From assembly GCF_013315695.1 (NCBI RefSeq), contig NZ_CP054353.1: a DNA stretch of 64,000 bases. One strand, given 5' to 3'. This stretch comes from Escherichia coli. Lineage in GTDB: Bacteria > Pseudomonadota > Gammaproteobacteria > Enterobacterales > Enterobacteriaceae. Positions within the stretch are counted from its first letter, which is position 1, and the number at the start of each line of letters is the position of its first letter. The notes below the pieces were generated by a model. The model was not told where the DNA came from. It saw only the letters and a program-made list of their open reading frames with translations, and did no database searches. Shown here piece after piece: positions 1,851 through 21,776 of the stretch. The translations under genes were made by a program, and so were the position numbers.

Positions 1851-1877
1851 ACAGGTGGCAAACGCCACCTGTTTCTT
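1851..1877 (+). terminator. Intrinsic terminator of mgsA; overlaps 3' end of convergent helD
   Basis: Hairpin acaggtggc-aaac-gccacctgt followed by ttctt. Confidence 0.6.
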
Positions 1878-3930
1878 ACGGTTTTCTCGCCACCGGCACA
1901 TCCAGATTTTTCAGTATTTCGACAAATGGAGAGGGATTCTCTTTGTTAAACAGTGCCCATACCCGATGGCGTGCCCGGGTCAGCGCCACGTACATTAACC
2001 GCCGTTCTTCAGCGTCCGGGAAATCCTCAACCGGTGGCAGTAGCGCCTCTTCCATAATCGACTCCCGCGCCGCAGCCGGAAAACCATCACTCCCCTCCTG
2101 CAAGCCAACGATGATGACGTAATCCGCCTGTTGCCCTTTGCTGGCATGAATGGTCATAAAGTCGATTTGCAACTTCGGCCAGCGTGTTGCCGCTTTTTCC
2201 AGGCTGGCAGCCCTCATGTGATGGTAACGCGCCAGGATCAGAATGCGCTCTTCCGGTTTGGCATAACCAGAGAGCTTATCCAGCAAAGCGTCAAGATGGC
2301 TCTCATCCAATAACGTGACGGCTTTTTTGTCTCCATTGGTTAAGCTGTTTAGCGGCTTTTTCAGCTGGCCTGGGTTCTGCTGAATAAACCGGTTTGCCAC
2401 CTCACCGATACGACTGTTAAAACGGTAAGTCGTGTCTAAATCGCAGCGATCACCTTCACCAAAGTTTTCATGGAAAGCGGTGGTGAGCGACATTTGCGCA
2501 CCGCTGAAGCGATAAATCGCCTGCCAGTCATCACCAACGGCGAACAACGTCGTCTGACTGTTTTGCTTGCGTAATGCCGCTAACAACGCTGCGCGCTGCG
2601 GCGAGATATCCTGAAATTCATCAACCAGAATATGCTTCCACGGGCTGATAAAGCGACCTTTCTCCAGAATCACAATCGCCTGGTGAATAAGGCCCGAAAA
2701 ATCGACAGCGTTTTCTGCCTTCAGCGCACCTTTCCAGGCTTTTAATAACGGAGCCATCAACTTGATACGTTTACTGAACAGATCGCGAATCTCTTCGGGT
2801 GCACTGGCAATCATTTCTGCCTGTGCACCACCGTGCATCCGCATCAGACTTACCCAACGATCGAGGCGTGAGGCAAGACGACGCTGTAATTTTTCATCAT
2901 CCCAGAAGTTACCTGCTGGCACTGACCACTGCATTTCTTCCGTCAGCCATTGCCGCCAGCCCTTCGCCTGCGCTTTCTTTTCGCTGCATTGCTTGCGCCA
3001 CTCAGCAATAAAGAGTTCATGACGGGCAGCGGTATCATTTTCCAGTTTGCTGACTATCGGAACTTTTTTGCTGCCCTGCTGAATAATATGCAGCGCCAGC
3101 GCATGAAACGTGCGTGCGGTAATGTCTTCGGTATGTAGCCGTTCGCGAATACGCTCGTCCATCTCTTCAGCGGCTTTGCGACCAAACGCCAGCAATAAAA
3201 TTTGCTCAGGGAACGCTTCACCACGCGCCAGCAACCAGCCTGCACGGGCCACCAGCACCGATGTTTTTCCGCTTCCTGCACCAGCCAGCACTAACAAAGA
3301 ATGCTCGCCATTAACGACTGCCCGGGCCTGCGCCGGATTCAGCGGTGAAGATTCGACCTGGCGGAAAAAATCCGCATACTCGGTAAGCATGGCTTCGGTA
3401 TACGCCTGATTATGCTGCAACCGAGCGCCTTCAATGTCCTTCAACCAGGCCTGACATTTACGCCACGCCTCACGGCAGTTATCGAATTCTTCCAGTCGGT
3501 TAACCGGCAACGGCAACGCCGACATAGCCTGGCGGATTTGTTGCTGAACGCCAGAGGTTTGCTCACGCGTCAGCCATTTATTTTCTCCGGTGCGCGTGGC
3601 AATTAAATCCAGTTGCTGGCGTAAAACACCAGACGCAATTTCGCTCATCTCGCCACTCCACCGCCGCCAGTGAGCATCAAGATGATGGTAAAAACGCTGC
3701 GTCTCGCCCCATTCGGTACCGTGCAGACGCACCACTTTTTCGCCCGGCAGTACAAATTCCAGCTCGCCCCATACCAGACCGCGCTTACAGTGAATCGCCA
3801 GTAATTGATTGAAAGGAATAAGGTATTCGTGGCGATCGCCGGAGACTTTAATCCCGGCATTGAGGATCACCGCCCGATCGTAAGGGTGCTGTGCCAGACG
3901 TTTTCCAAGCGTTGTCGCTTTCAGTTCCAT
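1876..3930 (-). CDS. helD: DNA helicase IV
   Basis: ORF 1876..4023 trimmed to ATG at 3928-3930 (684 aa, MELKATTLGKRLAQ...); UvrD-like helicase motifs (GSGKT). Confidence 0.92.
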   Translation of the reverse strand: MELKATTLGKRLAQHPYDRAVILNAGIKVSGDRHEYLIPFNQLLAIHCKRGLVWGELEFVLPGEKVVRLHGTEWGETQRFYHHLDAHWRRWSGEMSEIASGVLRQQLDLIATRTGENKWLTREQTSGVQQQIRQAMSALPLPVNRLEEFDNCREAWRKCQAWLKDIEGARLQHNQAYTEAMLTEYADFFRQVESSPLNPAQARAVVNGEHSLLVLAGAGSGKTSVLVARAGWLLARGEAFPEQILLLAFGRKAAEEMDERIRERLHTEDITARTFHALALHIIQQGSKKVPIVSKLENDTAARHELFIAEWRKQCSEKKAQAKGWRQWLTEEMQWSVPAGNFWDDEKLQRRLASRLDRWVSLMRMHGGAQAEMIASAPEEIRDLFSKRIKLMAPLLKAWKGALKAENAVDFSGLIHQAIVILEKGRFISPWKHILVDEFQDISPQRAALLAALRKQNSQTTLFAVGDDWQAIYRFSGAQMSLTTAFHENFGEGDRCDLDTTYRFNSRIGEVANRFIQQNPGQLKKPLNSLTNGDKKAVTLLDESHLDALLDKLSGYAKPEERILILARYHHMRAASLEKAATRWPKLQIDFMTIHASKGQQADYVIIVGLQEGSDGFPAAARESIMEEALLPPVEDFPDAEERRLMYVALTRARHRVWALFNKENPSPFVEILKNLDVPVARKP

Positions 3931-4052
3931 GACTCTGTAGATCCACACGAAATGATTTCTTATCAGTGTAACCGTCAGAGAAAACGTGCTCCAGCCCAAA
4001 AAAACGTTACAATTGCCGCCCATTACTGAAAACCACAGTAAAGCGAGGTTTT

Positions 4053-4499
4053 ATGCGTACCGTTTTGAACATTCTGAACTTTGTGCTTGGCGGATTTGCC
4101 ACCACTCTGGGCTGGCTGTTGGCGACTCTGGTCAGTATTGTGCTGATTTTTACCTTACCGCTGACACGATCCTGCTGGGAGATCACTAAACTGTCTCTGG
4201 TGCCTTATGGCAATGAAGCTATTCATGTCGATGAACTGAACCCGGCTGGCAAAAATGTGCTGCTGAATACTGGCGGTACGGTATTGAATATTTTCTGGCT
4301 GATTTTCTTTGGCTGGTGGTTATGCCTGATGCACATTGCAACGGGCATCGCACAATGTATTTCCATCATTGGCATTCCTGTCGGCATTGCGAACTTTAAA
4401 ATTGCCGCTATTGCACTATGGCCGGTCGGTCGTCGCGTGGTATCGGTAGAAACAGCGCAAGCTGCGCGTGAAGCCAATGCACGTCGTCGTTTTGAATAA
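4053..4499 (+). CDS. yccF: Inner membrane protein YccF
   Basis: 148-aa hydrophobic ORF matching YccF; immediately upstream of yccS. Confidence 0.85.
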   Translation: MRTVLNILNFVLGGFATTLGWLLATLVSIVLIFTLPLTRSCWEITKLSLVPYGNEAIHVDELNPAGKNVLLNTGGTVLNIFWLIFFGWWLCLMHIATGIAQCISIIGIPVGIANFKIAAIALWPVGRRVVSVETAQAAREANARRRFE

Positions 4500-4508
4500 T
4501 CCACTAAT

Positions 4509-6671
4509 ATGGCCTTTATGCTAAGTCCTTTGCTCAAACGCTATACCTGGAACAGCGCCTGGCTGTATTACGCGCGTATTTTTATTGCGCTTTGTGGAAC
4601 CACAGCGTTTCCGTGGTGGCTGGGTGATGTAAAACTGACGATTCCGCTGACGCTGGGGATGGTGGCAGCGGCGCTGACCGATCTCGATGACCGACTGGCG
4701 GGACGTTTGCGTAACCTCATCATTACGCTGTTCTGCTTTTTTATCGCCTCGGCCTCAGTAGAACTGCTGTTTCCCTGGCCCTGGCTATTTGCGATTGGCT
4801 TAACGCTCTCAACCAGCGGCTTCATTTTGCTCGGCGGTCTGGGTCAACGCTATGCAACAATTGCCTTCGGTGCGTTACTGATCGCCATTTACACTATGTT
4901 GGGGACGTCACTGTATGAGCACTGGTATCAGCAGCCGATGTATCTGCTGGCCGGTGCCGTCTGGTACAACGTCCTGACACTTATTGGTCATCTACTGTTC
5001 CCGGTCCGCCCGCTGCAGGACAACCTGGCGCGTTGCTATGAACAACTGGCGCGTTACCTTGAGCTCAAGTCGCGCATGTTTGATCCTGATATTGAAGATG
5101 AAAGCCAGGCACCGTTGTACGATTTGGCTCTCGCCAACGGTCAGCTGATGGCGACATTGAATCAGACGAAACTCTCGCTGCTGACCCGCTTACGTGGCGA
5201 TCGTGGTCAACGGGGAACGCGTCGCACGCTGCATTATTACTTCGTCGCGCAGGATATTCACGAGCGTGCCAGCTCTTCTCATATTCAGTATCAAACATTG
5301 CGTGAACATTTTCGCCACAGCGACGTGCTGTTCCGTTTTCAGCGGCTGATGTCGATGCAGGGCCAGGCGTGCCAGCAACTGTCACGTTGTATTTTGTTGC
5401 GTCAGCCTTATCAACATGATCCGCATTTCGAGCGCGCTTTTACGCATATTGATGCTGCGCTGGAGCGGATGCGCGATAACGGCGCACCTGCCGATTTACT
5501 CAAAACACTGGGATTTTTGCTGAACAATTTACGCGCCATTGATGCCCAACTGGCAACAATTGAATCAGAACAGGCCCAGGCACTGCCCCATAATAATGAC
5601 GAAAATGAGCTCGCTGATGACAGCCCGCACGGATTGAGTGATATCTGGCTGCGTCTTAGCCGTCACTTCACGCCGGAATCCGCCCTCTTCCGTCATGCGG
5701 TAAGAATGTCGCTGGTGTTGTGCTTCGGCTACGCCATCATTCAGATAACCGGAATGCATCACGGGTATTGGATCTTGCTGACAAGTTTGTTTGTCTGCCA
5801 GCCAAACTATAACGCCACGCGCCACCGCCTGAAGTTAAGGATTATTGGGACGCTGGTCGGTATCGCCATTGGCATTCCTGTGCTGTGGTTTGTACCGTCA
5901 CTGGAAGGGCAACTGGTGCTACTGGTTATTACCGGCGTGCTCTTTTTTGCCTTCCGTAACGTGCAATACGCCCATGCAACGATGTTCATCACACTTTTGG
6001 TGCTACTTTGTTTTAACTTGCTGGGTGAAGGTTTTGAAGTGGCGTTACCTCGCGTAATCGATACGCTGATTGGTTGTGCCATTGCGTGGGCGGCGGTGAG
6101 CTACATCTGGCCTGACTGGAAGTTTCGCAATCTGCCGCGCATGCTCGAACGTGCCACCGAGGCCAACTGTCGCTATCTCGATGCCATACTGGAGCAATAC
6201 CATCAGGGGCGTGATAACCGTCTGGCGTATCGTATTGCCCGCCGCGATGCACACAACCGTGATGCCGAACTGGCGTCGGTGGTATCAAATATGTCCAGCG
6301 AGCCGAACGTTACCCCGCAAATTCGCGAGGCCGCGTTTCGGTTGCTGTGCCTTAACCATACGTTTACCAGCTATATCTCAGCCCTCGGTGCTCACCGGGA
6401 GCAGTTAACTAATCCTGAAATTCTGGCGTTTCTTGATGACGCAGTTTGCTATGTTGATGGCGCGTTACATCATCAACCTGCTGATGAAGAACGCGTCAAT
6501 CAGGCATTAGCTGGCCTGAAACAGCGGATGCAGCAACTTGAACCACGGGCAGACAGCAAAGAACCTCTGGTCGTACAACAAGTTGGGTTATTGATTGCAT
6601 TACTGCCAGAGATTGGTCGTCTGCAACGCCAGATTACTCAAGTTCCGCAGGAAACTCCTGTTTCGGCGTAA
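4509..6671 (+). CDS. yccS: Inner membrane protein YccS (putative efflux/FUSC-like family)
   Basis: 720-aa polytopic membrane ORF matching YccS; true start could be the ATG at 4518. Confidence 0.85.
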   Translation: MAFMLSPLLKRYTWNSAWLYYARIFIALCGTTAFPWWLGDVKLTIPLTLGMVAAALTDLDDRLAGRLRNLIITLFCFFIASASVELLFPWPWLFAIGLTLSTSGFILLGGLGQRYATIAFGALLIAIYTMLGTSLYEHWYQQPMYLLAGAVWYNVLTLIGHLLFPVRPLQDNLARCYEQLARYLELKSRMFDPDIEDESQAPLYDLALANGQLMATLNQTKLSLLTRLRGDRGQRGTRRTLHYYFVAQDIHERASSSHIQYQTLREHFRHSDVLFRFQRLMSMQGQACQQLSRCILLRQPYQHDPHFERAFTHIDAALERMRDNGAPADLLKTLGFLLNNLRAIDAQLATIESEQAQALPHNNDENELADDSPHGLSDIWLRLSRHFTPESALFRHAVRMSLVLCFGYAIIQITGMHHGYWILLTSLFVCQPNYNATRHRLKLRIIGTLVGIAIGIPVLWFVPSLEGQLVLLVITGVLFFAFRNVQYAHATMFITLLVLLCFNLLGEGFEVALPRVIDTLIGCAIAWAAVSYIWPDWKFRNLPRMLERATEANCRYLDAILEQYHQGRDNRLAYRIARRDAHNRDAELASVVSNMSSEPNVTPQIREAAFRLLCLNHTFTSYISALGAHREQLTNPEILAFLDDAVCYVDGALHHQPADEERVNQALAGLKQRMQQLEPRADSKEPLVVQQVGLLIALLPEIGRLQRQITQVPQETPVSA

Positions 6672-7263
6672 GAGAGTCAGCCCATTCTGCAAGCTCCTGG
6701 CGGCGTGCCACCGGGAGCGCAGCTTCATGAATGCCGATAATGGCCCCTTCAAGCATAAACAGAATCTTTTCTGTCACCAGACTGTTTTGCTGCCGCAGTC
6801 GCAACCAACACATTTTTGCCCCAAGTATACGTAACGCCCGTACATCCTTAATCCCCACCTCCCCGAGAATCGCTTCCAGATGAAAAGACATATTGGGCAA
6901 ATCTTTCAGTCTTTCCCGGGTATTGCGCGTGCTTTTCTCTTTCAGCGCTGCATCGAGAGAATATTTCGACAGACGCACCAGCTTCAGTTGATTTCGCCAT
7001 AGACTTTCATCAACTCGATAGTAATTGAGGGTAACGGATCGGCCACACTTTTTATATGTCAGCCAGACAGGCGGATGTTTTACACAGTACTGTGCACTTT
7101 GCTCACAAGCCCGAAGATACAACTCACCATCAGAAACCATCGCAAACACCGTGTCGTCAACGGTCAGGCTGTAACTGCCAAACAATGATCGGTATTCAAT
7201 TGTGCCCAACGTTGCCAGGTATTCTTGTGATTTATAGATCCGCTTATAGGAGAGGCTTTTCAT
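6634..7263 (-). CDS. sxy: Competence/CRP-S regulon activator Sxy (TfoX)
   Basis: 209-aa ORF matching E. coli Sxy/TfoX; 3' end overlaps yccS convergently. Confidence 0.9.
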   Translation of the reverse strand: MKSLSYKRIYKSQEYLATLGTIEYRSLFGSYSLTVDDTVFAMVSDGELYLRACEQSAQYCVKHPPVWLTYKKCGRSVTLNYYRVDESLWRNQLKLVRLSKYSLDAALKEKSTRNTRERLKDLPNMSFHLEAILGEVGIKDVRALRILGAKMCWLRLRQQNSLVTEKILFMLEGAIIGIHEAALPVARRQELAEWADSLTPKQEFPAELE

Positions 7264-7439
7264 AAAATTCCTTTTAAAATCATAACATAAAAGAATGATT
7301 CACATTAACGGATCCGTTAACTACGAAAATAGGCAACTTATTCTTAAGGGGCAAGATTAATTTATGTTTTCCCGCCACCAACGACAAAATTTGCGAGGCT
7401 CTTTCCGAAAATAGAGTTGATCTTTGTCGTCACTGGATG

Positions 7440-7459
7440 TACTGTACATTCATACAGTA
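7440..7459. promoter_or_regulatory. LexA operator (SOS box) of sulA
   Basis: tactgtacattcatacagta = CTGT-N8-ACAG palindrome 23 bp upstream of the sulA ATG. Confidence 0.85.
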
Positions 7460-7481
7460 ACTCACAGGGGCTGGATTGATT

Positions 7482-7991
7482 ATGTACACTTCAGGCTATG
7501 CACATCGTTCTTCGTCGTTCTCATCCGCAGCAAGTAAAATTGCGCGTGTCTCTACGGAAAACACTACAGCCGGGCTTATCAGTGAAGTTGTCTATCGCGA
7601 AGATCAGCCCATGATGACGCAACTTCTACTGTTGCCATTGTTACAGCAACTCGGTCAGCAATCGCGCTGGCAACTCTGGTTAACACCGCAACAAAAACTG
7701 AGTCGCGAATGGGTTCAGGCATCTGGGCTACCCTTAACGAAAGTAATGCAGATTAACCAGCTCTCCCCCTGCCACACCGTGGAGTCAATGGTTCGCGCTT
7801 TACGCACGGGCAATTACAGCGTGGTGATCGGTTGGTTGGCAGATGATTTGACTGAAGAAGAGCATGCTGAACTTGTTGATGCGGCAAATGAAGGTAACGC
7901 TATGGGGTTTATTATGCGTCCGGTAAGTGCATCCTCTCACGCCACGAGACAACTTTCCGGGCTAAAAATTCACTCTAATTTGTATCATTAA
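7482..7991 (+). CDS. sulA: SOS cell-division inhibitor SulA
   Basis: 169 aa from ATG 7482 ([11 protein letters not shown]...); recognised SulA; LexA box upstream. Confidence 0.92.
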
Positions 7992-7999
7992 GTAAATTT

Positions 8000-8023
8000 A
8001 GGATTAATCCTGGAACTTTTTTT
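8000..8023 (+). terminator. Probable sulA terminator (short hairpin plus T7 tract)
   Basis: aggattaatcct followed by ggaacttttttt. Confidence 0.45.
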
Positions 8024-8214
8024 GTCGCCCAGCCAATGCTTTCAGTCGTGACTAATTTTCCTTGCGGAGGCTTGTGTGAAGCGGTTTCCGCGATTTTCTT
8101 CTGTAAATTGTCGCTGACAAAAAAGATTAAACGTACCTTATACAAGACTTTTTTTTCATATGCCTGACGGAGTTCACACTTGTAAGTTTTCAACTACGTT
8201 GTAGACTTTACATC

Positions 8215-8347
8215 GCCAGGGGTGCTCGGCATAAGCCGAAGATATCGGTAGAGTTAATATTGAGCAGATCCCCCGGTGAAGGATTTAACCGTGTTATCTC
8301 GTTGGAGATATTCATGGCGTATTTTGGATGATAACGAGGCGCAAAAA
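8215..8347 (+). promoter_or_regulatory. ompA 5' untranslated leader (about 133 nt, stabilising 5' stem-loop; Hfq/MicA target region)
   Basis: Sequence gccaggggtgctcggcataagccg... matches the known ompA mRNA 5' end; long leader before ATG 8348. Confidence 0.75.
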
Positions 8348-9400
8348 ATGAAAAAGACAGCTATCGCGATTGCAGTGGCACTGGCTGGTTTCGCTACCGT
8401 AGCGCAGGCCGCTCCGAAAGATAACACCTGGTACACTGGTGCTAAACTGGGCTGGTCCCAGTACCATGACACTGGTTTTATTCCTAACAATGGTCCGACC
8501 CACGAAAACCAACTGGGTGCAGGTGCTTTTGGTGGTTACCAGGTTAACCCGTATGTTGGCTTTGAAATGGGTTACGACTGGTTAGGTCGTATGCCGTACA
8601 AAGGCGACAACATCAACGGCGCATACAAAGCTCAGGGCGTTCAGCTGACCGCTAAACTGGGTTACCCAATCACTGACGATCTGGACATCTACACTCGTCT
8701 GGGTGGTATGGTATGGCGTGCAGACACCAAGGCTAACGTACCTGGTGGCGCATCTTTTAAAGACCACGACACCGGCGTTTCTCCGGTTTTCGCTGGCGGT
8801 GTTGAGTACGCGATCACTCCTGAAATCGCTACCCGTCTGGAATACCAGTGGACCAACAACATCGGTGACGCACACACCATCGGTACTCGTCCGGACAACG
8901 GCATGCTGAGCCTGGGTGTTTCCTACCGTTTCGGTCAGGGCGAAGCAGCTCCAGTAGTTGCTCCGGCTCCAGCTCCGGCACCGGAAGTACAGACCAAGCA
9001 CTTCACTCTGAAGTCTGACGTTCTGTTCACCTTCAACAAAGCAACCCTGAAACCGGAAGGTCAGGCTGCTCTGGATCAGCTGTACAGCCAGCTGAGCAAC
9101 CTGGATCCGAAAGACGGTTCCGTAGTTGTTCTGGGTTACACTGACCGCATCGGTTCTGACGCTTACAACCAGGGTCTGTCCGAGCGCCGTGCTCAGTCCG
9201 TTGTTGATTACCTGATCTCTAAAGGTATCCCGGCAGACAAAATCTCCGCACGTGGTATGGGCGAATCCAACCCGGTTACTGGCAACACCTGTGACAACGT
9301 GAAACAGCGTGCTGCACTGATCGACTGCCTGGCTCCGGATCGTCGCGTAGAGATCGAAGTTAAAGGCATCAAAGACGTTGTAACTCAGCCGCAGGCTTAA
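8348..9400 (+). CDS. ompA: Outer membrane protein A (non-K-12 loop allele)
   Basis: 350 aa from ATG 8348 ([21 protein letters not shown]...); barrel and OmpA-like C-terminal domain conserved; loop segments differ from K-12 sequence as I recall it. Confidence 0.95.
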
Positions 9401-9413
9401 GTTCTCGTCTGGT

Positions 9414-9446
9414 AAAAAACCCCGCAGCTGCGGGGTTTTTTTTCGC
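9414..9446. terminator. Bidirectional intrinsic terminator between convergent ompA and matP
   Basis: aaaaaaccccgcagctgcggggtttttttt: GC-rich hairpin flanked by A- and T-tracts. Confidence 0.85.
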
Positions 9447-9475
9447 CTTTAGTAAATTGAAGTGACTTTTGACAG

Positions 9476-9928
9476 TTATTCCTTACCCAGCAATGCCTGC
9501 AGATCCTGCTTCAGAGAAGACATTTTATTCGCGTATTTCTCTTTGTTTTCCGCATCTTCAATCAGCTGAACAATCGTTTCAGAAAGCGTTTTACCGCGAC
9601 GCTGCGCAAGACCAGCCAGACGTTGCCAGACAATAAATTCCAGATCGATCGATTTTTTGCGCGTATGCTGGTGTTCCGCATTAAAATGGCGCTTCCGTCT
9701 GGCCCGAATGGTCTGCTTCATGCGATTGACCAGTTCCGGATTCATATGCTTGTCAATCCAGCCATTTACCAGCACGGGTTCATTTTCCAGCGAGAGCAAC
9801 ACATCGACGGCTTCCTGGGCGGCACTGGCTTCTATGTAACGGGTGATTAACTCCCCTTCGCGATACTTCTTCACCAGATACTTCCATTTCCAACCGCTTT
9901 CAAGATTTTCAAGTTGTTGATATTTCAT
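9476..9928 (-). CDS. matP: Ter macrodomain organiser MatP
   Basis: 150-aa ORF matching MatP. Confidence 0.9.
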
Positions 9929-20666: not shown

Positions 20667-21776
20667 GTGGCGACATTAACCCGGCTTTTTATTCATCCTG
20701 TTAAATCGATGCGCGGCATTGGTCTTACACATGCTCTGGCAGATGTCAGTGGTCTGGCCTTCGATCGCATCTTTATGATCACGGAACCTGACGGTACGTT
20801 TATTACTGCTCGCCAGTTTCCCCAGATGGTACGGTTTATTCCTTCACCTGTGCATGATGGCTTGCATCTCACCGCACCAGATGGCAGTAGTGCATATGTT
20901 CGTTTTGCTGATTTCGCCACACAAGACGCACCAACCGAAGTTTGGGGCACACATTTTACCGCGCGAATTGCGCCAGACGCGATCAACAAATGGCTAAGTG
21001 GATTTTTCTCCCGCGAAGTGCAATTACGCTGGGTGGGGCCACAAATGACCCGGCGCGTGAAACGCCACAACACTGTACCCCTGTCATTTGCTGATGGTTA
21101 TCCTTACCTTCTTGCTAACGAGGCCTCGTTACGTGATCTCCAACAACGTTGTCCGGCCAGTGTAAAAATGGAGCAATTCCGCCCCAATCTGGTGGTTTCC
21201 GGTGCATCGGCCTGGGAAGAAGATAGCTGGAAAGTGATTCGCATTGGTGATGTCGTGTTTGATGTGGTTAAGCCTTGTAGCCGCTGTATTTTCACCACCG
21301 TCAGCCCAGAAAAAGGGCAAAAACATCCGGCAGGCGAACCATTAAAAACGCTGCAATCTTTCCGTACTGCCCAGGATAACGGCGATGTCGATTTTGGTCA
21401 GAATTTAATTGCCCGTAATAGCGGCGTGATTCGCGTTGGCGATGAGGTGGAAATTCTGGCAACGGCTCCAGCTAAAATTTACGGCGCAGGTGCCGCCGAT
21501 GATACTGCCAACATCACGCAACAACCGGACGCAAACGTAGATATTGACTGGCAGGGACAGGCATTTCGTGGAAATAACCAACAGGTGCTGCTGGAGCAAT
21601 TAGAAAATCAGGGAATTCGTATCCCTTATTCTTGCCGCGCGGGCATTTGTGGAAGTTGCCGTGTTCAGCTTTTAGAAGGCGAAGTCACGCCGCTGAAAAA
21701 ATCAGCAATGGGTGATGATGGCACTATTCTTTGCTGTAGTTGTGTACCGAAGACTGCACTTAAGCTGACGCGTTAA
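20667..21776 (+). CDS. ycbX: MOSC-domain protein YcbX with C-terminal 2Fe-2S ferredoxin-like domain
   Basis: 369 aa; C-terminal cysteine cluster [11 protein letters not shown]...CCSC; matches YcbX. Confidence 0.85.

Follow-up and report, generated by a model that had tools for sequence, protein, structure and literature searches.

The convergent genes yccS and sxy of Escherichia coli, each of which ends inside the other, raise the question of whether their overlap serves to restrain expression of Sxy or is simply a consequence of the close packing of two gene ends. The locus lies within a contiguous stretch of 64,000 nucleotides, referred to here as the window, and its features are collected in Table 1. 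The placement of the yccS stop 38 bp inside the 3' end of sxy, as given in an earlier note on this DNA, is exact by both the open reading frame list and the sequence. Within the overlap, codon positions 1, 2 and 3 of yccS face positions 1, 3 and 2 of sxy, with the yccS stop sitting within sxy codons L198-T199 (cTTAcg) and the sxy stop within yccS codons I-T (aTTAct). Both coding sequences, with an identical 38-bp overlap, are annotated by RefSeq/PGAP for K-12 MG1655, for isolate AF3, which matches the window at 100% identity, and for a strain at 91% identity. Of 5426 complete E. coli genomes, 5425 contain the yccS/sxy region.

Table 1. Coordinates of genes and sequence elements at the yccS/sxy junction (positions in the window)
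Feature	Position	Strand	Description	Source or further detail
yccF	4053..4499	+	first gene of the yccF-yccS operon, transcribed towards sxy	RefSeq annotation
yccS CDS	4509..6671	+	720 aa, YccS/FUSC-family putative transporter	stop TAA 6669-6671
sxy (tfoX) CDS	6634..7263	-	209 aa, CRP-S coactivator	stop TAA, read 6636 to 6634
Tail-to-tail CDS overlap yccS/sxy	6634..6671	both	38 bp, phase (123:132)	
GC-rich stem-loop without U tract	6693..6718	+	inside sxy codons 182-191	candidate yccFS mRNA 3'-end element
C-rich, G-poor tract	6799..6878	+	32 C, 9 G	candidate Rho-utilisation region 3' of the stem-loop on the yccS-sense strand

An annotation artefact was considered as the source of the overlap and rejected, both stops being the first in-frame stops of conserved orthologues. 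Both yccS and sxy are genuine coding genes, with Pfam domains (TfoX_N and TfoX_C in Sxy; FUSC-like and FUSC_2 in YccS), RefSeq annotation and orthologues across the Enterobacterales. The overlap encodes only the extremities of the two proteins. TfoX_C ends at Sxy residue 194 and the overlap-encoded residues 198-209 form a variable tail, while the Pfam matches in YccS stop near residue 685, leaving the final 12 codons beyond any domain.

Such an arrangement is not unusual. Lillo & Krakauer (2007; PMC2174442) counted 58 convergent coding overlaps in E. coli and found the (123:132) phase to be the most frequent among convergent overlaps of at least 5 nt (49%), with stop-codon mutation as the accepted origin of the class. 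In the first 50 kb of the window, two of the seven convergent pairs overlap, yccS/sxy and, by 4 bp, zapC/ycbX. Like other members of the class, yccS/sxy consists of two real opposite-strand genes sharing their 3' ends in the commonest phase, with comparative data showing that the stops have shifted in both genes; it differs only in length, 38 bp against a modal 4 bp. The pair is thus an ordinary convergent overlap, and it is already present in the reference annotation.

Comparison across the order shows how readily the junction changes. The synteny ycbZ-matP-ompA-sulA-sxy><yccS-yccF-helD is conserved, and the length of the overlap varies: 38 bp in Escherichia (41 in E. albertii), 14 in Salmonella, 11, 23, 32 and 47 in Citrobacter, 35 in Intestinirhabdus and in Pseudenterobacter, 44 in Enterobacter and Lelliottia, 20 in Leclercia, 26 in Tatumella and 4 in both Yokenella and bacterium ESL0689. 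One contig has a 2-nt gap between the genes rather than an overlap, so that the junction in Enterobacteriaceae and Erwiniaceae ranges from this gap to 47 bp of overlap. The Yersiniaceae have a spacer instead, of 36 nt in Yersinia ruckeri and 44 nt in Chimaeribacter. Between genera the stops of both genes move, but the conserved ends of the proteins (Sxy ...RRQELxxW, YccS ...LLPEIxRLQ) keep their register. Judging from these alignments, the overlap arose by a shift of stop codons and not by the creation of a new gene. Conservation at the junction also reaches its minimum in the overlap, whose mean pairwise identity is 0.52 versus 0.63-0.72 in the flanks, and nothing therefore suggests selection on a pairing element within it. 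Such lability and lack of constraint speak against the overlap as such having a sequence-specific antisense function.

Since each stop codon lies inside the other gene, full-length yccS and sxy mRNAs are necessarily complementary. The earlier note's statement that transcription of each gene must enter the other is, for full-length mRNAs, borne out by geometry. Overlap of the transcripts has also been reported before: an RNA-seq meta-analysis (NAR 2025, PMC12288877, Table 1) includes sxy-yccS in its list of 165 convergent excludons, present in at least 50% of 58 MG1655 transcriptomes. The yccF-yccS operon is also named by Conway et al. (2014; PMC4161252).

A further claim, that the arrangement leaves no room for terminators, holds in part. 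There is no intergenic space, but a conserved stem-loop begins 22 nt past the yccS stop, inside sxy, and is followed by a C-rich tract. A scan for intrinsic terminators (a hairpin with a U tract) found 6, against 5.0 expected by chance, and none at the junction. The element at 6693-6718 has the GC-rich stem-loop of an intrinsic terminator but not the 7-8 nt U-rich tract that should follow the stem immediately; the sequence found there is GCAGCTTCATG on the + strand and TTGCAGAATGG on the - strand. It does have the features of the stem-loops that protect Rho-dependent 3' ends, being stable, free of a U tract and near a stop codon, with C exceeding G downstream. The C-rich tract lies above the 95th percentile of windows antisense to coding sequence, and C exceeds G at the same place in all 12 species compared. 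Window positions 6693-6718 correspond to about 1,021,680-1,021,710 on the K-12 minus strand. In the Term-seq data tabulated by Adams et al. (2021), no 3' end is listed between K-12 positions 1,020,120 and 1,026,525, and none for yccS, sxy or the interval 1,021,5xx-1,021,8xx; weak expression of the two genes is the probable reason.

The stem-loop has the sequence GCTCCTGGCGG-CGTG-CCACCGGGAGC, forming 8+2 bp in E. coli and a perfect 11 bp in Salmonella and C. koseri. Its core has a folding energy of -17.2 kcal/mol, reaching -22.5 kcal/mol in a context of 40-48 nt, and only 1 of 190 background blocks is equally stable. In all 19 sequences it folds better than synonymous recodings of the same stretch, of which (1000 for each comparison) 0-2.4% were as stable. 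The sxy codons that form the stem are correspondingly frozen. L183 (CTC), P184 (CCG), R188 (CGC) and E190 (GAG) are each written with one and the same codon in all 12 species, a behaviour seen at just 9 of the 73 invariant degenerate columns of sxy, while the loop codon R187 uses four different codons. Among 67 windows along the gene, the one holding the stem-loop has the lowest synonymous entropy (permutation p about 0.002). Dual coding was rejected as the cause, YccS ending at 6671, and at most about 9 nt later in other genera, which is well short of 6693. Elsewhere in the gene, a second cluster of frozen synonymous sites occupies sxy codons 6-14.

Pairing is maintained across the alignment, with 92.7% of partner cells paired in register versus 39-54% when the partners are slid, and one stem pair shows the series G-C to G.U to A-U. 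The stem is nearly invariant, and true covariation is accordingly thin (two pairs changed on both sides, a result equalled by 8-11 of 500 shuffles). Of three genera held out, two retain the stem-loop, and in its position Yokenella carries another palindrome; ESL0689 and contig L030, like Yokenella, have a weak stem-loop or none. The Yersiniaceae with a spacer between the genes have a hairpin in that spacer and none in sxy, and the sxy gene of Plesiomonas, which has no yccS neighbour, contains no comparable hairpin. The hairpin can fold on either strand, and pair counts (153 versus 146 of 165) do not tell the two apart. By folding energy the core favours the yccS sense in 14 of 17 sequences, although this advantage is small and the sequences are related. 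An Rfam scan of positions 4000-9500 at E-values up to 1 gave no relevant match and none at or near 6600-6900, and no description of the stem-loop was found in the literature. Another hairpin, 3' of the sxy stop within yccS (CTCTGG pairing with CCAGAG in the fold), was dropped as a candidate, its codons varying freely between species on visual inspection of the alignment.

The stem-loop at 6693-6718 is, on these sequence features, most likely the 3'-end element of the yccFS mRNA. The explanation that we favour, with a probability of roughly 0.6, is that the overlap is an ordinary product of stop-codon drift, that the yccFS 3'-end signal lies inside the sxy frame and that overlap between the RNAs is a side effect. 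The two genes would have met at their 3' ends since before the Enterobacteriaceae/Erwiniaceae split, with drift of stop codons in two weakly constrained C-terminal tails creating and repeatedly resizing the overlap. With the intergenic spacer gone, the signal that forms the 3' end of the yccF-yccS mRNA, comprising on this view the stem-loop and then the C-rich, G-poor tract, would lie within the sxy reading frame. RNA polymerase transcribing yccFS would pass the yccS stop, and the RNA beyond it would be untranslated. We infer that transcription is then ended by Rho or by collision with a polymerase coming from sxy, and that exonucleases trim the RNA back to the stem-loop, which would be used on the yccFS strand. 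Every yccFS mRNA would then include a stretch of about 85 nt or more complementary to the 3' end of sxy (6634-6718), while at least 38 nt of each full-length sxy mRNA would be complementary to yccS. Such complementarity is taken here to be a consequence of gene packing, and a role in regulating Sxy to be hypothetical; negligible antisense effects are assumed in this account rather than shown by it.

Several alternatives to this account were weighed. The overlap itself might be under selection, for genome compaction or for locking yccS and sxy together, and it, or a near-abutment, is indeed kept in all sampled Enterobacteriaceae and Erwiniaceae, with the relative reading frame mostly retained (overlap lengths of 2 mod 3). 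Yet a constant frame is expected merely from a lack of indels in two coding sequences, and the frame relation is lost in the 4-bp overlaps of Yokenella and ESL0689. With the length free to move between a 2-nt gap and 47 bp, the encoded tails variable and outside the domains, and conservation at its minimum just here, we consider selection of this kind extremely improbable. A regulatory convergent excludon, in which yccFS transcription into sxy lowers Sxy and helps to keep the competence genes off, could act by polymerase collision or by formation of an RNA duplex and its cleavage by RNase III, and the effect could also run in reverse. The complementarity that it needs is obligatory from the overlap, the pair is listed in PMC12288877, three families of Enterobacterales keep the two 3' ends close together, and mscL-arfA provides a worked convergent precedent in E. 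coli (PMC10070815). The listing nevertheless says little, because transcripts overlap at 276 of 370 (75%) convergent E. coli operons, by a mean of 286 nt, and convergent excludons were not validated by the p19 dsRNA data in the ExcludonFinder study (PMC12288877). Moreover, the shared segment is the part of the junction that is conserved least, the Yersiniaceae keep a spacer with its own hairpin, and the literature located on Sxy describes control at other layers: CRP-S autoregulation of sxy in E. coli (PMC4595672) and 5' RNA structure with purine-dependent translation for H. influenzae sxy (PMC2248739, PMC3739930). A literature search combining sxy with antisense brought up no work on such control of the E. 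coli gene, and a search on 'yccS' alone gave nothing but unrelated acronyms. Regulation by this route seems to us distinctly unlikely.

Somewhat less unlikely, though still doubtful, is that the stem-loop serves sxy or acts as DNA and lies close to the yccS stop by coincidence. It could slow ribosomes, influence sxy mRNA decay, bind an RNA-binding protein or be a palindromic protein-binding site. The hairpin does form in both senses and lies in the sxy reading frame, the frozen stem sites might also be kept by a function of sxy mRNA or by a site acting at the DNA level, and the frozen codons 6-14 show that other RNA-level constraints operate in sxy. However, in sxy mRNA the hairpin is translated, 18 codons before the stop, and ribosomes would unwind it. 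The greater stability of the core in the yccS sense and the C-rich tract that follows on the yccS-sense strand also point away from sxy, as does the distribution of the element: lineages with a hairpin in a spacer between the genes have none in sxy, and the sxy gene of Plesiomonas, with no yccS beside it, has nothing comparable. It is also conceivable, but very unlikely, that the stem-loop is a collision-positioning or termination element common to both genes and that yccFS transcription is a hard-wired brake on Sxy, the regulator of competence. Termination of sxy transcription at the stem-loop would give an mRNA without a stop codon, since the stem-loop lies upstream of the sxy stop. If this were true, yccFS transcription would stop sxy polymerases at 6693-6718, 18 codons short of the end of the gene, and the product of the non-stop message would be tagged and destroyed, providing a mechanistic and conserved version of the idea of antisense interference.

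A yccFS 3'-end element within sxy has precedents in E. coli. End-forming signals are embedded in the convergent gene in 21 of the 58 convergent overlaps (PMC2174442), and stem-loops without U tracts mark and protect Rho-dependent mRNA 3' ends, with rut sites just downstream (PMC6061677). The present stem-loop resembles those of Dar & Sorek (2018; PMC6061677) in being stable and GC-rich, soon after a stop, without a U tract and with C exceeding G downstream; it differs in being a 3'-end candidate predicted from sequence and in lying in the coding sequence of the convergent gene, where it constrains synonymous sites. It is also like the bidirectional terminator elements (Ju et al. 2019; Wang et al., bioRxiv 10.1101/2022.10.23.513370), stem-loops that position polymerase collisions at convergent pairs, in being a palindromic stem-loop at a convergent junction that can fold in both transcripts and does not resemble an intrinsic terminator. 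Unlike these, it is situated 5' of the sxy stop, inside the coding sequence. With respect to convergent excludons (PMC12288877; Conway et al. 2014, PMC4161252), sxy-yccS is itself listed and its operons are described as converging, whereas the mutual exclusion, RNase III processing and phenotype are candidate features for this pair. In mscL-arfA, likewise a convergent pair whose 3' transcript overlap is proposed to couple expression, the coupling is experimentally supported (PMC10070815), whereas for yccS/sxy it is hypothetical.

The overlap as first described is of little consequence in itself, being annotated already and having its transcript overlap in a published list. What the present analysis adds is that the overlap is labile and unconstrained, and that a conserved stem-loop lies inside sxy beside the yccS stop. 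If confirmed as the 3'-end element of the yccFS mRNA, the stem-loop would be a clean case of a transcript-end signal constraining the synonymous sites of a convergent gene, and synonymous changes that break the stem would offer a precise handle on the effect of convergent transcription on Sxy.

The tail-to-tail overlap of yccS and sxy (tfoX) is exact by ORF coordinates and is the same in RefSeq, so the 38 bp given in the earlier note were correct. The RefSeq annotations of K-12 MG1655, E. coli isolate AF3 (NZ_OZ547117.1) and one 91%-identical strain carry the identical overlap; the tested stretch of the window is 100% identical to AF3, and the region is found in 5425 of 5426 complete E. coli genomes. 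The yccS stop codon, TAA, falls within sxy codons L198-T199 and the sxy stop within yccS codons I-T, with yccS codon positions 1, 2 and 3 lying opposite sxy positions 1, 3 and 2. An overlap of this kind is nothing unusual, and this one was already known. E. coli has 58 convergent overlaps, this phase (123:132) is the commonest among those of at least 5 nt (49%), and stop-codon mutation has been proposed as their source (Lillo & Krakauer, PMC2174442). Two of the seven convergent pairs in the first 50 kb of the window overlap, the other being zapC/ycbX, where ycbX (+, end 21776) and zapC (-, end 21773) share the 4 bp at 21773-21776. The zapC-ycbX pair is likewise among the published excludons, neighbouring opposed genes with overlapping transcripts (PMC12288877).

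Features of the yccS/sxy junction (positions in the window, or in the fetched locus for relatives bearing an L number)
Feature	Position	Strand or arrangement	Detail
yccS	4509-6671	+	ORF list and sequence
sxy	7263-6634	-	ORF list and sequence
yccS/sxy overlap	6634-6671	tail to tail	38 bp; ORF list and sequence
Stem-loop	6693-6718	+	GCTCCTGGCGG CGTG CCACCGGGAGC; junction alignment, 19 Enterobacteriaceae
C-rich, G-poor tract	6799-6878	+ (yccS sense, antisense to sxy)	32 C, 9 G
Escherichia			overlap 38 bp (E. albertii 41)
Salmonella			overlap 14 bp
Citrobacter			overlaps 11, 23, 32, 47 bp
Intestinirhabdus			overlap 35 bp
Enterobacter, Lelliottia			overlap 44 bp
Pseudenterobacter			overlap 35 bp
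Leclercia			overlap 20 bp
Yokenella			overlap 4 bp
Enterobacteriaceae bacterium ESL0689			overlap 4 bp
Tatumella			overlap 26 bp
One further contig			2-nt gap, no overlap
Tatumella (L029) inverted repeat	about 3990-4020	in sxy, sxy sense	TCTGGCCAGCACC AGGA AGTGCTGGCCAGA
Yersinia ruckeri (L033) spacer	4131-4166		36 nt, filled by hairpin
Chimaeribacter (L032) spacer	4128-4171		44 nt, filled by hairpin GGGTAGCCGGC...GCCGGCTACCC

The gene order ycbZ-matP-ompA-sulA-sxy><yccS-yccF-helD is kept across Enterobacterales while the length of the junction varies; Plesiomonas has sxy without a neighbouring yccS. Stops shift in both genes, and the conserved protein ends of Sxy and YccS remain in register. 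In protein terms the overlap corresponds to residues 198-209 of Sxy and 709-720 of YccS, beyond the Pfam matches of either protein (TfoX_C reaches residue 194, the FUSC matches reach about 685). Among 12 species, mean pairwise nucleotide identity rises from 0.52 in the overlap to 0.63-0.72 in its flanks and 0.86-0.90 in the arms of a stem-loop within sxy. The overlap, with the lowest identity, a wandering length and moving stops in tails outside the Pfam matches, is thus under less constraint than any other part of the junction. This is consistent with stop-codon drift in dispensable tails and speaks against an antisense pairing element being conserved within the overlap. The hairpin-filled spacers of Chimaeribacter and Yersinia ruckeri may represent an ancestral or alternative layout.

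Three annotations in this material deserve comment. The label of a metagenomic bin, 'uncultured Raoultella sp.' (L021), looks doubtful, since its junction (23-bp overlap and tails) matches the one in Citrobacter braakii exactly and differs very little from that of C. portucalensis. The 276-bp contig NZ_VLXZ01000190.1 (L024; coverage about 1.1) matches E. coli sxy at 99% identity and is most likely E. coli contamination of the assembly it belongs to, which is labelled Alkalicoccobacillus porphyridii. The mechanical ORF of helD (1876-4023, -) reaches 93 nt further upstream than the annotated start (3930), and the extension looks like 5'-region read-through, not coding sequence.

The earlier note also saw no room for terminators. 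This holds for intergenic space and, on scanning, for canonical intrinsic terminators, but it overlooked the conserved stem-loop embedded in sxy. This inverted repeat starts 22 nt past the yccS stop, within sxy codons 182-191 (ALPVARRQEL), and is nearly invariant in the aligned junctions of 19 Enterobacteriaceae. Across 12 species with Sxy identities of about 58-100%, L183 (CTC), P184 (CCG), R188 (CGC) and E190 (GAG) are never encoded otherwise, while the loop codon R187 takes four different forms; of all 73 degenerate columns that are invariant in sxy, only 9 are of this single-codon kind. Synonymous entropy is lowest here among 67 windows (permutation p about 0.002, assuming exchangeable codon columns in a small, phylogenetically structured sample). 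In 19/19 sequences the fold is stabler than those of 1000 alternative synonymous codings of its peptide, of which 0-2.4% are equally stable. Pairs form in 92.7% of cells, and sliding the 3' partners lowers this to 39-54%. One stem pair in Lelliottia belongs to a G-C to G.U to A-U series, and an equally stable 40-nt hairpin (-22.5 kcal/mol) occurs in only one of the 190 antisense-of-CDS blocks of 200 nt in this window. These observations are evidence for an RNA- or DNA-level element that is not a by-product of the protein sequence. It has no match in Rfam, and we found no earlier description of it in the literature.

The stem-loop is missing or weak in three lineages. In three genera fetched later as a check, it is retained in Pseudenterobacter, retained in shorter form in Leclercia, and lost in Yokenella, where another palindrome, of 8 bp, occupies the site. 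The Tatumella repeat forms a perfect 13-bp stem (-26.4 kcal/mol) about 73 nt past the yccS stop, and its sequence is unrelated to that of the Enterobacteriaceae stem-loop. In the two Yersiniaceae the hairpin lies in the spacer, and sxy itself has none.

An intrinsic terminator is ruled out, since a U tract is missing on both sides. The stem-loop could instead serve sxy or function as a DNA site, and the paired cells, 153/165 in the yccS sense and 146/165 in the sxy sense, leave the strand undecided. Such a role is nevertheless unlikely: the stem sits in the translated part of the sxy mRNA and is untranslated in the yccS transcript, which favours the yccS sense, and the core is stabler in that sense in 14 of 17 sequences (mean difference 1.9 kcal/mol). 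The C-rich tract about 80 nt downstream, which ranks beyond the 95th percentile when set against antisense-of-CDS windows of the region and has C exceeding G in 12/12 species, also favours yccS-sense use. A stem-loop lacking a U tract and followed by a C-rich tract matches the Rho-dependent 3' ends of Dar & Sorek, where a stable U-tract-less stem-loop shields the mRNA from PNPase and RNase II and the rut region lies just downstream (PMC6061677). The element also resembles the stem-loops of bidirectional terminators, which position polymerase collisions at convergent pairs.

The earlier note further proposed that obligatory transcript overlap allows yccS transcription to interfere with sxy. The transcript overlap stands: the geometry makes full-length yccS and sxy mRNAs complementary, and the overlap is real and already catalogued, sxy-yccS being among 165 convergent excludons in at least 50% of 58 MG1655 transcriptomes (ExcludonFinder, PMC12288877). 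This listing tells little about function, since 276 of 370 convergent operons have overlapping 3' ends, by 286 nt on average (Conway et al., PMC4161252). Conservation gives regulatory interference no support, the literature search found no paper connecting yccS transcription with Sxy, and we regard such interference as unlikely. Sxy is reportedly subject to Lon proteolysis (Jaskolska and Gerdes, 2015). The papers found on Sxy control concern layers other than convergent yccS transcription. CRP-S autoregulation of E. coli sxy is cited in PMC4595672, and H. influenzae sxy is governed by 5' RNA structure and purine-dependent translation (PMC2248739, PMC3739930). A second frozen synonymous cluster lies at the 5' end of E. 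coli sxy (about 7222-7248, -), where Y6 TAT, I9 ATC, Y10 TAT and E14 GAA each have one codon in 12/12 species; it could reflect a constraint on initiation or a structure in the 5' part of the mRNA, and may be likened to the 5' constraint known in H. influenzae (PMC2248739).

For K-12 positions 1,020,120-1,026,525, coordinates derived via an ompA anchor and not taken from the reference record, Adams et al. (2021) list no 3' end in their Term-seq tables. A terminator embedded in the partner's coding sequence has been described for 21 of the 58 E. coli convergent overlaps (PMC2174442). The best explanation, to which we give a probability of about 0.6, is a neutral, drifting coding overlap combined with a yccFS 3'-end element inside sxy. 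The overlap would drift through shifts of the stop codons, and the stem-loop within the sxy coding sequence would supply the 3' end of the yccFS mRNA.
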